Assembly: GCA_951406725.2 (NCBI GenBank)
Contig: OX597841.1
Coordinates: 15,872,001 to 15,936,000 of the forward strand
Source: Octopus vulgaris
Lineage: Eukaryota
DNA length: 64,000 bases
Reading direction: 5' to 3'
Positions within the stretch are counted from its first letter, which is position 1; every line of letters begins with the position of its first letter. Below, one piece after another: positions 733 to 54,295 of this stretch. Below the pieces are notes generated by a model. The model was not told the DNA's origin. It worked only from the letters and a program-made list of their open reading frames with translations, and made no database searches. The position numbers were made by a program, and so were the translations under genes.

Positions 733-963
733 ATTTTCCTTCCGGTCATTCAAAATGTGACCGCGTGTGTACCGTTGGCGATTTTTTTTCCTCTGTCTTC
801 CCTTCTCTGGATCTTTCCTTCTCCTATGATTCCGACGAAGAGCTCCGCTCGAAACGTTAAACCCTCCTTCTTCCCTTCTTTTCTGAGCGTCCAATAATAC
901 TATATATGTTCCACGTCCTCGCGTTGTTGTGTTTTTTTGTGCTTTCTTGTTTGGATTAACTTT
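733..963 (+). mobile_element. Hammerhead-bearing short element, family A (Penelope-like pLTR or retrozyme)
   Basis: Homologous to 4529-4745 (-) and 35281-35454 (+). Contains CCGACGA-A-GAGC-TCC-GCTC-GAA-ACGT-T-AAAC at 832-862. Flanked by TA/CATA repeats. Confidence 0.7.
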
Positions 964-1266
964 ACATACATACATACATACATATATACATACATACATA
1001 CATACATACATACATACATACATATATACATACATACATATATACATACATACATACATACATACATACATACATACATACATACATACATACATACATA
1101 CATATATACATACATACATACATACATACATACATACATACATACATACATACATACATACATACATACATACACATATACATACATACATACATACATA
1201 CATACATACATACATACATACATACATACATACATACATACATACATACATACATATATACATATA
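964..1266. repeat. (CATA)n microsatellite
   Basis: Tandem array. Confidence 0.95.
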
Positions 1267-1540
1267 CGTGGTTTCAGCGATTAATTCAATGTCATTGGCG
1301 AATCCCAGGATGTAGTCGTTCGCCATTGATGTTCACGCCATCTGTCCAGTCAACATCCTTTATGAGCATTTCCGGAGATGCGGTGTAGCGGCCCAGACAA
1401 GAGCTAAACCATGCCATACATGCCAGACACTCCCATAGCAACGTCCTACTTGCGCTCTTATGTGCAAGTGAGACTTGGGCTTCTACAAATCAGGAAGAAC
1501 ATCAATCGGCCACGATGCTAAACGCCATGGAAAGATCCAA
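1267..1540. mobile_element. Decayed RTE-clade LINE fragments in opposite orientations
   Basis: The minus strand gives ILGFANDIELIAE (FADD-like RT motif). The plus strand at ~1440-1540 gives VLLALLCASETWAST...NAMERS, like the RTE YGSETW...AMER region. Confidence 0.6.
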
Positions 1541-1544
1541 TGAT

Positions 1545-2166
1545 ACAAAGCACGCGGAATTCTGTTCTTGATTCGACGGTCATTCGGAATGCTCACAGCA
1601 GCGATATTCCTACCGCTCTATGTCACGCTGGTGAAACCCATATTGGAGTACGGTATTCAAGCCTCTTCTCCTTATCTCGTCAAAGACATACAGCATCTCG
1701 AAATAGTCTAGAAGCTGGCTACCCGCATGGTTCTTGGTCTCAAGCATTTGTCTTATGAAGAAAGGCTGACGACGCTCGACCTTTATTCTCTAGAAAAACA
1801 ACGATGCCGTGGTGATCTCATTCTCGCCCACAACATCATAAGCGGAAAGTGTAACCTCTCGAAAGAGCTGTTCTTCACTCCTGCTCCAGAGCGTCAGCTG
1901 CTGGGTCACTCCGAAAAGCTCTATCTGCGACGATTTCATCTCAATCGAAGGAGAGGGGCTTTCTCCGTCCGGGTTTGCGGATCCGTGGAATAAGCTGCCC
2001 GACGAGATGGTGAAGATGCCGACAACCGCTCGGTTCAAAGTCTCCCTTGACCACAAGTTGCCTGAACTCTTTACATGAACACCACCCTGTACATAACTCC
2101 ATGTCCCCCTACATGGCCTTGCTTTTTGCTTTTTGAGCCAAAAAATTAACTAACTAACTAACTAAT
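1545..2166 (+). mobile_element. CR1-group LINE 3' fragment with (TAAC)n tail
   Basis: Broken translation LYVTLVKPILEYG...LSYEERLTTLDLYSLEKQRCRGDLI...GHSEKL...FSVRV..WNKLP..FKVSLD, then a short 3' UTR and a taactaac tail. Confidence 0.9.
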
Positions 2167-2244
2167 TATCACGAGAGCTATTTATTCCGTACATATAGGC
2201 GCTGGCTTGGTTGTGTGGTAAAAAGATTGCTTTCCAACCACGTG

Positions 2245-50870: not shown

Positions 50871-51081
50871 TTTAATTAGAGAAGATATGTTATCCTCGTG
50901 ATAGGAGATGGTTACTCCCAAGGAAACACTGGTTCAATACCTAGTGTTGTTGGAAAATGAAATTTCCTTGAAACAACAGATATGTATTAAGCATATAGTT
51001 TAAATCCCGTTAAAAGAAGGAAGTAAAAACTGAGGCAAGGAACTTAGCAATTATTTATTATTAATGAATAGGTCGTCTTCG

Positions 51082-51611
51082 CTACTTACGGCCGTTTTCA
51101 ATTAATACGCGATGATATAATTACAAATTTCTCTTTCTCTTTCTCTTTTTACTTGTTTCAGTCATTTCGACTGCGGCCATGCTGAAGCACCGCCTTTAGT
51201 CGAGCAAATCGACCCTGGGACTTATTCTTTAGTAAGCCCAGTACTTATTCTATCGGTATCTTTTTGCCGAACCGCTAGTGACGGACGTAAACACACCAGC
51301 ATTGGTTGTCAAACCATGCTAGGGGGACAAACACACACACACAAACATATACACACACACACATATATATATACATACATATATACGACAGACTTCTTTC
51401 AGTTTTCGTCTACCAAATCCACTCACAAGGCATTGGTCGGCCCAGAGGCTATAGCAGAAGACACTTGCTCAAGATGCCACGTGCAGTGGGACCGAACCCG
51501 TAACCATGTGTGGTTGGTTAGCAAGCTACTTACCACACAGCCACTCCTGCGCCTATACATTTGTACATTAAATTCGCATTATGTGACGTGGACATAATTT
51601 CATCAGAGGAA
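51082..51611 (-). ncRNA. Hammerhead fold split by a SINE insertion
   Basis: Minus strand TTCCT-CTGATGA-AATTA...[SINE]...TAATT-GAA(A)-ACGGCCGT-A-AGTAG. Confidence 0.5.
51131..51553 (-). mobile_element. SINE family 1, full length, many 1-bp indels
   Basis: Homology; TSD-like TACA(A)ATTT / TACATTT flanks. Confidence 0.9.
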
Positions 51612-51930
51612 AAGACTTACCTTGAGATGTTATAAGCTGACCTATCGAACCATTTCAGCGGCGAAATCGTGATGACCATTTCAGATGACCAATTTGTTAA
51701 TAATAAATCATTGTTGACTTACTAACCCCTATTTTCTTTTCTTCTTTTAACTATATATGTATTGCTAGTTTGTTTGAGCTACAAGGGTTATGGCCACACC
51801 TGGAGCATAGTATATGCTGCCGATGGAAACGGACGACGGGGTTCCTTGTTTTTTTTTTGTTTTTTTCTTATTGTTGTTTTCGCTTTCTAATGTTGTGGTT
51901 GTATATAAACTTGGTTATTGCTATTTTTAT

Positions 51931-52030
51931 NNNNNNNNNNNNNNNNNNNNNNNNNNNNNNNNNNNNNNNNNNNNNNNNNNNNNNNNNNNNNNNNNNNNNN
52001 NNNNNNNNNNNNNNNNNNNNNNNNNNNNNN
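51931..52030. other. Assembly gap (100 N)
   Basis: N run. Confidence 1.
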
Positions 52031-54096
52031 GTTATTGCTATTTTTATCAGAGGGGGTGACTACGTTGAGACTTTCTCTCTCTTTCACTCTCTCTCTCTCT
52101 CTCTCTCTCTCTCTCTCTCTCTCTCTCTCTCTCTCTGTCCCTCTCTCTGTCTTTCTTTCTCTCTCACTTGCTTCTACGCTCTCTCTCTCTCTCTCTCTCT
52201 CACCGTAACTCTCTCTTTTTCTCTGTGTTCTCTCTCTGTCGCTGTGTGCGTTTCTCTTTCTCTCTCTCTCTTTCGCTCTCTCTCTCTTTCGCTCTCTCTC
52301 TCTTTCGATGTATCTCTCTCTCTCTCTCTCTTTCTCTCCACACACATCTTTGGCTGGTTGAGATAGAGAGGTGAGAGACAGTCAGGGAGAAAGAGAGAAT
52401 AAGAGACAGAGAGAGTCAAAGGAGATGGGAGAGGCACACAGAGCAGACAGAGAGAGAAAAAGGAGAGAGAGAGAGAGAGTCAGGGAGAGACATAGGGGTT
52501 AGAGTGAGCAAAGGGAGAGTGAGGGAGAGAAGGGCTGAGCAGAGAGAGAAAGGGAGAATAATTAGAGAGCAAATGGAGAGTGAGGGATATAGGGATGGAG
52601 GAAGAGCGAGAGATAGGGAATGAGAGAGAGAGGGAGAGCAGTTAGAATTAGAGAAGAAGTAGTTCCAAAGCAGATGGAGAGAGAGAGAAATAGAGAGCAG
52701 AGTTAGAGAGACAGACAGAGATAGCGAGAGATAGCGAAAGGGCAGAGAGTGAGGGAGGGAGAGAGAGAGAGAGTAGATAGAGAAGACAGACACAGACAGA
52801 GAGAAGAGATCAGAGTGAGAGAGCGAAAGAGAAAGAGACAGCAAAGGCAGAGATTGAGCAGATAGAGAGACAGAGAGTGACAGACAGCATATAGATAGAG
52901 AGAGAGAGAGAGAGAGAGAGAATAACGATTGAGACTGAGCAAATAGAGATAGAGAGAGAGACAACAAAGATAGACTGAGCAGATAGATAGATAGATAAAT
53001 AGAGAGGGAGAGAGAGAGAGAGAGTATATAGTTAGACAGACATGAAAAGAGAGAGGAAAAGAGAAGAGAGACAGAGAGAGAGTGAGGGAGAGAGCATATA
53101 GTTAGACAGACAGAAAGAGAGAGAGGGCGAAGTGGAAGAGAGACAGAGAGAAGGTATGAGAGAGAGAGAGAGAGAGTGGATTTAGTTAGACAGACAGAAA
53201 GAGAGAGAGGGCGAAGGAAAAGAGAGATAGAGGGAGAGAGTGGGAGAGAGACAGACAGAAGAAGAAGAAGAAGAAGAAGAAGAAGAAGAAGAGGAAGGGG
53301 AAGGAGAAGAAGAAAAAGAAGAAGAAGAAGAAGAAGAAGAAGAAGAAGAAGAAGAAGAAGAAGAAGAAGAAGAAGAAGAAGAAGAAGAAGAGTGACAGAG
53401 AGAGAGTGAGAGAGAGCATTTAGTTAGACAGACAGAAAGAGAGATAGGGTGAGTGGAAGAGAGACAGAGAGAGAGAGAGAGAGAGAGCATATAGTTAGAC
53501 AGACAGAAAGAGAGAGAGGGTGAGTGGAAGAGAGACAGAGAAAAACTGAGAGAGAGAGAGAGACAGAGAGTGGATATAGTTAGACAGACAGAAAGAGAGA
53601 GAGAGGGCGAAGGCGAAGAGAGACAGAGGGAGAGAGCGAGAGAGAGACACAGACAGAGAGAGAGAGAGAGCATATAGTTAGACAAAAGAGAGAGAGAGAG
53701 ATAGACAGATGGAGTATTTATTTTGGTGAGAGTTAGGTGAGAGCCAACGAAGCAGCAAGAGATAAACAAGGAGAGCGGATTTCGTGAAAAGCTCTTCAAG
53801 GGAGCAAGGAGAGAGGGAGAGATGCTAAAAGTTTTCCACAAACTCCGTATGGCTATAAACCCCACCACCAACACCACACACACACACACACAAATGTATG
53901 TATATATATATATATATATATATATATATATATATATATATATATGTATGTATGTATATGTGCATATGTCTATCCGTCAATCTATCTATATGTATGTATA
54001 TATATATATATATATATATATATATATATATATATATATATATATATATATATATATGTATATACATATATATATATATGTATATGTATATATATA

Positions 54097-54295
54097 ACGG
54101 GAAAGTTTACGAAAATAAAGAAAAGACGAAGGCAGGTGGAGTACAAACAAACAAATGTATTAGTTTAACGCTCAGGAATAGAAAAAGTCTTTTACGTTTC
54201 GAGCCTACGCTCTTCCACAGAAAGGGACACAGAAAAAAAAACAAGGAGAGAAACATGGAGAGAAAAAGGAAAGAAAAAAATGCGTGTAGGAGCTA
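54097..54295 (-). mobile_element. Hammerhead-bearing element family B
   Basis: Fold at 54189-54224: CTTT-CTGTGGA-A-GAGC-GTAG-GCTC-GAA-ACGT-A-AAAG. (TA)n on both sides. Confidence 0.65.

Follow-up and report, generated by a model that had tools for sequence, protein, structure and literature searches.

Minimal hammerhead ribozymes have been known since 2014 from the pseudo-long-terminal repeats (pseudo-LTRs) of metazoan Penelope-like elements (PLEs), with many families per genome, solitary truncated copies and a palindromic helix III (PMC4209133). Their function in these elements has been called unclear (PMC8557442), and in one in vitro system they were described as dispensable for insertion (PMC11167929). 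Here we examine a set of hammerhead folds in a 64-kb stretch of the Octopus vulgaris genome (contig OX597841.1, positions 15,872,001 to 15,936,000; referred to below as the window and numbered from its first letter). These sites are likely to be 3'-terminal pieces, either pseudo-LTR ends or short non-autonomous derivatives, of at least five PLE families carrying minimal type-I hammerheads. The unusual point of the window is the fixation of a U at core position 6 in one abundant family, a change that mutagenesis leads one to expect would cripple the ribozyme.

Hammerhead folds and their families

The twelve sites listed in an initial annotation of this DNA were inspected on both strands and parsed as stem I, core, stem II, GAA, stem III, H17 and stem I. 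Ten of them show the minimal type-I layout, their cores being closed by stems I and II; the dozen folds originally counted are reduced by a degraded motif at 27691 and a site at 51082 without its 5' half. The ten folds form five families, A and B with three members each, C with two, and D and E with one each, in agreement with the earlier estimate of at least five. GAAA and UH are present throughout. An exact CUGANGA core (or its U3:A8 form) is found in E only, the remaining nine folds carrying U4C, A6U, G3:C8, A6G or G8A. An extra nucleotide stands between positions 9 and 10.1 in the seven folds of A, B and D, and in none of C and E, and a G10.1-C11.1 pair closes stem II in the six folds of A and B, with G-U in D and E and A-U in C. 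The stem III palindrome is perfect in seven folds, an odd-length near-palindrome in both C copies and broken at 15434. Stem I differs in sequence from family to family with its pairing kept (GUUU/AAAC, CUUU/AAAG, CUGU/ACAG, UGUCA/UGACA and CUAUG/CAUAG). Plain decay, whether by G8A, a broken palindrome or stem mismatches, affects at least four of the ten copies, and most genomic copies here appear to be decaying.

Family A is marked by a CCGACGA core, the extra A, a GAGC/GCTC stem II and an ACGT stem III. Its elements lie at 735..962 (+; hammerhead 828-862, core CCGACGA at 832, H17 at 858, one stem I mismatch), 4529..4748 (-; hammerhead 4631-4665, H17 at 4635) and, with a truncated 5' end, 35281..35452 (+; hammerhead 35315-35349, core CCGACGA at 35319, H17 at 35345). 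The core of the second copy reads CCGACAA at 4661 (U4C plus G8A), and its ribozyme is probably dead; a hammerhead copy with G8A is described as inactive (PMC11014351, PMC6431247, PMC8490949). A fourth, diverged copy at 19359..19470 (-), absent from the first list, is truncated inside stem II, has no core and has TA on both sides.

Family B combines the scaffold of family A with a CTGTNGA core. It comprises the elements at 15342..15535 (+; a diverged subfamily with hammerhead 15434-15469, core CTGTTGA at 15438 and a stem III palindrome broken by ATGT), 15568..15743 (+; hammerhead 15617-15652, core CTGTAGA at 15621, A6U at 15624, H17 at 15648) and 54097..54293 (-; hammerhead 54189-54224, core CTGTGGA at 54220, H17 at 54193). 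The first two stand head to tail across a (TA)16 tract, their cores 183 bp apart. Families A (~885-895, +) and B (15668-15678, +), whose flanks otherwise differ, both have TGAGCGT ~25 nt past H17.

Family C is recognised by its ACTC-A-GAGT stem III. One element is found at 19183..19340 (-; hammerhead 19282-19329, core CCGGCGA at 19320 with U4C plus A6G, 8 of 9 stem I positions paired, H17 at 19291) and a decayed copy at 32904..32982 (+; core CCGACGA at 32910, stems I and II mismatched). A 3' end alone, truncated downstream of the hammerhead, with TA on both sides and likewise missing from the first list, lies at 30182..30274 (-). Element D (31087..31295, +) and element E (18730..19060, +, approximate bounds) are single copies. 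The former has a hammerhead at 31107-31157 with a GTGAACA core at 31114 (G3:C8), a 7-bp stem I, a 5-bp stem II and H17 at 31150; the latter has one at 18829-18904 with a canonical CTGAAGA core at 18834, H17 at 18899, a 45-nt stem II domain and a 10-nt palindrome. The cores were mostly as first annotated, the corrections being those at 4631 (CCGACAA) and 19287 (CCGGCGA).

The doubtful motif at 27691..27734 (+) retains CCGAGGA at 27695, GAA, a stem I of 4 bp and a palindrome with one mismatch; its stem II is broken, and it satisfied none of the descriptors with printed matches. At 51078..51128 (-) the 3' half of a hammerhead is left, comprising the hairpin, GAAA and palindrome; a SINE (short interspersed element) tail replaces the core and the 5' strand of stem I. 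Just downstream of this half-hammerhead is a 70-bp segment bearing AATAAA (51009-51078, -), which recurs in inverted orientation at 51683-51751 (+) with 74% likeness and may mark another decayed family. Lastly, three units of ~390 bp, about 70% alike and absent from the first list, follow each other head to tail at 31838-32870 (+). They have decayed motifs at the same place (CTGAGAA at 31993, CTGAGGA at 32386 and CTGATGA at 32776, each followed by GAAATA), with stem II mostly lost, and the whole resembles an ancient array of tandem retrozymes or pseudo-LTRs.

Chance expectation and motif searches

The relaxed-core scan against shuffled controls that had been proposed as a check was run on the window, using local dinucleotide and 4-mer shuffles (60 of each) at five descriptor settings. 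The strict descriptor, which allows one core deviation and no stem mismatch and which, like the others, was tuned after the sites had been seen, matched four folds from three families (same-family copies not being independent) against shuffle means of 0.03 and 0.03, and four was reached in 0 of 60 shuffles of either kind. With up to two core deviations, seven folds were matched against means of 0.43 and 0.77 (0 of 60 for each shuffle). The observed count was reached in 0 of 60 shuffles at all three moderate settings besides the strict one. The loosest setting matched 23 folds against 16.3 and 19.8, a count reached in 4 and 15 of the 60 shuffles and hence not significant.

That canonical searches would overlook these sites was borne out. 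Rfam hammerhead models gave no match at E up to 10 in three local scans (18829, 31107 and 15617), and no hammerhead model was among the 150 of 472 matches listed for the whole window, which were dominated by microsatellite matches to microRNA models. Since a search for the exact core retrieves one of the ten folds and misses nine, cephalopod hammerhead counts are likely to be underestimates.

A fixed U at position 6 in family B

The stretch 15569-15743, which holds the second family B copy, is present in 21 of 24 listed sequencing runs under several organism labels. It was matched at 80% likeness to contigs of four runs (21,804, 19,460, 8,001 and 4,221; 53,486 in total), a set confined to sequences like this copy, whose summed depth is not a copy number and in which the small number of master lineages limits the independent events. 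The 21,804 contigs of a single run show family B to be abundant, and to this extent the high-copy radiation first claimed holds.

In none of the four runs does any other letter reach 3% at position 6 (15624, T). Variation is likewise below 3% at C3, U4, G5, G8, A9, the inserted A, most of stem II, A13, A14, A15.1 and U16.1, and CpG transitions account for 1-5% at C11.1 and G12 and 2-12% at the CG of stem III. Three non-CpG sites vary by 10% or more, specifically N7 (A, U or G), the first base of loop II and H17 (A or U). The chance of these three falling within seven free positions of 36 is P ~0.005-0.025, the value varying with the treatment of a fourth site, and the pattern at N7, loop II and H17 looks like that of working hammerheads. 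U6 is moreover common to family B copies that are ~80% alike. An alternative register with a U inserted after G5 was rejected: it breaks G8, and 15625 varies like N7. The 3' loose end of the family B contigs is (TA)n in all four runs. Stem I of this copy (15613-15654, +) can be extended by two pairs past a 2-nt bulge, which varies by up to 20% with hardly any variation in the flanking pairs.

Element ends and target sites

The elements that carry the motifs measure 80-330 bp and have shared 3' ends and variable 5' ends. In family A the 3' end is common to all four copies and the starts differ, one lying inside stem II; in family C it is common to two of three copies, and one C copy starts downstream of the hammerhead. 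A 24-bp 3' extension present in two family B copies and missing from the other matches the optional PLE 'tail' described in work on the Anolis element PAc (PMC11167929). Tracts of (TA)n or (TACA)n flank 9 of 12 element copies on both sides (the ten listed sites left after removal of 27691 and 51082, plus the two extra truncated copies), in keeping with the annotated abutment on (TA)n. Because the copies combine shared 3' ends, variable 5' ends and TA flanks, we infer that their anatomy is the footprint of target-primed reverse transcription with a fixed start and early termination.

The 3' ends of families B and C and element D have a similar short motif (CTCCG, CTCCCG, TTCCCG or CTCCGG) immediately ahead of the TA tract, at 15743 (+), 54097 (-), 19183 (-), 30182 (-) and 31295 (+), which is possibly a shared start signal for reverse transcriptase (RT).

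The link to Penelope-like elements

To look outside the window, metagenome contigs were searched with the A/B scaffold pattern, core positions 3-7 being left free, and at least 120 loci were returned. Among the 120 listed, a C[U/C]GANGA core is present in 64, position 4 being U in 37 and C in 27. PLE protein remnants lie upstream and in sense at eight of these 64, some of the eight probably being one locus assembled twice and three of them having contributed to the PLE profile that recognised them; three (L148, L228 and L245) carry CCGACGA. Homologs of the longest outside piece of open reading frame (ORF), from L207, carry RT and GIY-YIG Pfam domains, and L207 itself has the cysteine linker of Neptune/Nematis elements described previously (PMC8557442). 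Pfam gave no match in three outside ORF pieces themselves, the identity of which rests on their homologs and on mutual matches. The scaffold of an Acropora Neptune hammerhead (PMC4209133, supplement Fig. S3) is nearly the same as that of families A and B. Given these ORF remnants and the Acropora example, the A/B scaffold, U4C included, is a PLE hallmark in other animals, and families A and B appear to use a scaffold of Neptune type. U4C is found in all five window copies of A and C that have a core, is shared with the PLE ends of other animals (27 of the 64 loci) and is already in print. Of the family-specific cores originally proposed, A6U in family B stands; U4C is both published and shared, and G3:C8 is known from one copy, element D. 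We take U4C and G3:C8 to be tolerated variants.

Several outside loci (L156, L173, L174, L176, L177 and L216) have an inverted partial hammerhead directly upstream of the intact one, a fold-back layout known for PLE ends. The other 56 of the 120 listed loci lack a C[U/C]GANGA core and were left out of account as decayed or chance matches. The CUGU core of family B was absent from all 120 loci listed, and a 23-base pattern specific to this family returned no metagenome locus. A 16-base scaffold pattern returned at least 120 prokaryote loci and 19 viral-contig loci, which were judged to be chance from the length of the pattern.

A number of observations weigh against a PLE origin or against active ribozymes. 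A linked RT plus GIY-YIG ORF, sought as the initial annotation had suggested, was not found within the window: no RT or GIY-YIG Pfam match was obtained in the 150 fragments scanned (of 449 made), and a PLE profile run over all six frames gave nothing below E 1.5. The likeness of families A and B to the outside PLE ends is confined to ~30 nt of the hammerhead, and convergence on so small a motif is possible. The TA background is high, with a TA tract no more than 140 bp downstream at 25% of positions and 5 of 10 SINE heads abutting TA. Helix III has one pair, the swapped ACGU dimer helix is weak (about -2.3 kcal/mol), and in their minimum-energy folds the monomers of A, B and C pair otherwise and do not form the hammerhead. 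The weak dimer helix and these monomer folds agree with the low, dimer-dependent activity reported for PLE hammerheads (PMC4209133) and with the protein-assisted cleavage described for one of them (PMC11167929). With the likeness confined to ~30 nt, a PLE origin of these particular cephalopod families is an inference; the folds themselves, the family structure, the ends and the fixation of U6 were observed directly.

Proposed mechanism and alternative explanations

We propose that a PLE protein made elsewhere in the genome would bind transcripts carrying the terminal repeat. By analogy with described elements (PMC11167929, PMC8557442), its GIY-YIG endonuclease would nick an AT-rich or (TA)n tract, and RT would then start at a fixed point ~70-150 nt downstream of the hammerhead and stop early, so that the short copies agree at the 3' end and differ at the 5' end. 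A single hammerhead cannot close helix III, and cleavage would be slow and would require a dimer or an assisting protein. Dimeric cleavage and the targeting of microsatellites had both been put forward for this locus; they are known PLE traits and carry no novelty here.

These sequences could instead be free-standing non-LTR retrozymes, short units transcribed as multimers, the products of hammerhead cleavage closing into circles and returning to the genome through a borrowed RT. The unit size of 160-230 bp, the two B copies arranged head to tail, the decayed array at 31838-32870 and the occurrence of family B in contigs of run X10, guessed to be RNA, would all suit such a scheme. So would two single low-depth contigs of run X14 in which the family B 3' end runs straight into its 5' part with no TA in between (15719 to 15572 and 15729 to 15591), although a head-to-tail join of this kind fits tandem DNA or a circle alike. 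Most copies are however monomers with variable 5' ends, and the two B copies in tandem show ~80% likeness and have TA between them, as separate insertions predict. Two or more consecutive tandem units with complete hammerheads were not seen, the single B pair being split by TA with one unit decayed and the motifs of the 390-bp array being decayed as well, whereas published non-LTR retrozymes are mostly described with canonical hammerheads in tandem arrays (PMC7229834). We consider a retrozyme origin unlikely. Retrozymes have themselves been proposed to derive from PLE ends (bioRxiv 10.64898/2026.07.22.740005), and this explanation therefore overlaps with that of PLE terminal pieces. Still less probable, to the point of being very improbable, is that chance or convergent patterns in ordinary short repeats, with no relation to ribozymes, account for the sites. 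The loose descriptor matches as many folds in shuffles as in the window, Rfam models are blank at the three sites tested and two listed sites fail; yet the strict counts, the covariation of stem I across families, the variation pattern of family B and the presence of the same scaffold behind PLE ORFs elsewhere largely refute this explanation for A, B, D and E.

A different question, which concerns function and is compatible with a PLE origin, is whether the family B hammerhead (and perhaps others) is catalytically dead, A6U having arisen in a master copy and the fold being inherited or serving as a protein-binding landmark. We regard this as a serious possibility that falls a little short of even. 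A natural A6C hammerhead is reported to cleave at less than 0.1 per minute and position-6 changes to give low activity (PMC3088659, section 8), mutants of a lizard PLE hammerhead are described as inserting normally in vitro, and ends at the cut site were not found in the RNA-seq reported with them (PMC11167929). In the monomer, U6 would also permit an alternative pairing of U4-G5-U6 with stem III, and few master lineages amount to few independent changes. On the other side, the rest of the core does not vary except by CpG transitions, which at C11.1 and G12 reach 5% at most, and N7 takes three states and H17 two, neither of the latter being G. Moreover, U6 is found in copies ~80% alike and must therefore have outlasted several amplification rounds. 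The variation pattern thus resembles selection on a hammerhead, and the family B consensus could well still cleave measurably, a matter on which we lean only slightly to the negative. That selection for cleavage has maintained its hammerhead with U6 in place, dimer formation or a PLE protein compensating, is a tentative suggestion that we find on balance doubtful.

Genomic setting

The window is microsatellite-rich animal DNA that also holds SINEs, remnants of long interspersed elements and mariner/Tc1 remnants. What we take, by eye, to be a Tc1-like 3' remnant (~18484-18730, -) adjoins element E. A mariner transposase remnant (PF01359) lies at 12160-12534 (+), and a single-exon SoxC (Sox4/11/12)-like gene with an HMG box at 61022-62392 (+), its top named homolog being cuttlefish SOX4 at 59% identity, in line with a coleoid cephalopod host. 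The SINEs look octopus-like.

Significance

PLE hammerheads are nearly universal in these elements, yet slow. A high-copy family with a fixed A6U and the rest of its core intact amounts to a natural experiment on the need for cutting. Cleavage by family B would show that the accepted consensus of the core has to be widened for hammerheads acting as dimers or with protein assistance; failure to cleave would mean that a PLE family has retained the fold and spread without cutting. Together with the U4C and G3:C8 families, a family B kept for cleavage would mean that large animal hammerhead populations are invisible to CUGANGA searches. The remainder of what we observed is an expected instance of the 2014 finding.

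Comparison with known systems

The small PLE hammerhead variants of Lunse, Weinberg and Breaker (2017), which reportedly cleave as dimers, resemble the folds of this window in their short stem III and PLE association. The closest described counterparts are the minimal hammerheads of PLEs (PMC4209133), with which the present folds share the type-I layout, a short stem I, the extra nucleotide after A9, the G10.1-C11.1 pair and GAAA-CG-U-H with a palindromic helix III, as well as the multitude of families in one genome and the predominance of solitary truncated copies. They differ in that the published descriptor and its 56 aligned examples have CUGANGA or U3:A8, from which nine of the ten folds here depart, and in that the ORF link is known here from the scaffold in other animals only.

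Natural core variants have been reviewed before and include U4C (from a viroid), U3:A8 and A6C, the first and the last of these being less active (Perreault et al. 2011, PMC3088659). These are rare single ribozymes, in contrast to the A6U fixed across an abundant animal repeat family here, and A6U is not named in the relevant passages of that article. In a 2026 virome survey the hammerhead core is written as CYGANGA (PMC13481778). The Anolis Poseidon element PAc (PMC11167929) offers a further parallel in its AT-rich targets, its optional tail and an internal start point for RT that is fixed and lies downstream of the hammerhead. PAc is autonomous with a canonical core; its engineered C3G/G8C double mutant, which partly restores cleavage in vitro, matches the G3:C8 core that occurs naturally, in one copy, in element D. 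Metazoan non-LTR retrozymes are similar as short non-coding, PLE-derived units with type-I hammerheads (PMC7229834; bioRxiv 10.64898/2026.07.22.740005), but are defined there by tandem units and circular RNA, unlike the mostly monomeric copies with ragged 5' ends seen here.

A 2026 paper on O. vulgaris repeats lists Penelope families, with no occurrence of the word 'ribozyme' in its main text (PMC13282606). Our literature searches, which did not extend to the Lunse et al. 2017 catalogue and to some figures and supplements, returned no fixed natural A6U family and no cephalopod PLE hammerheads. Overall, the class to which these folds belong has been known since 2014, U4C has been published and G3:C8 engineered before, and what this window adds, as far as we have found, is a new family with a fixed A6U.

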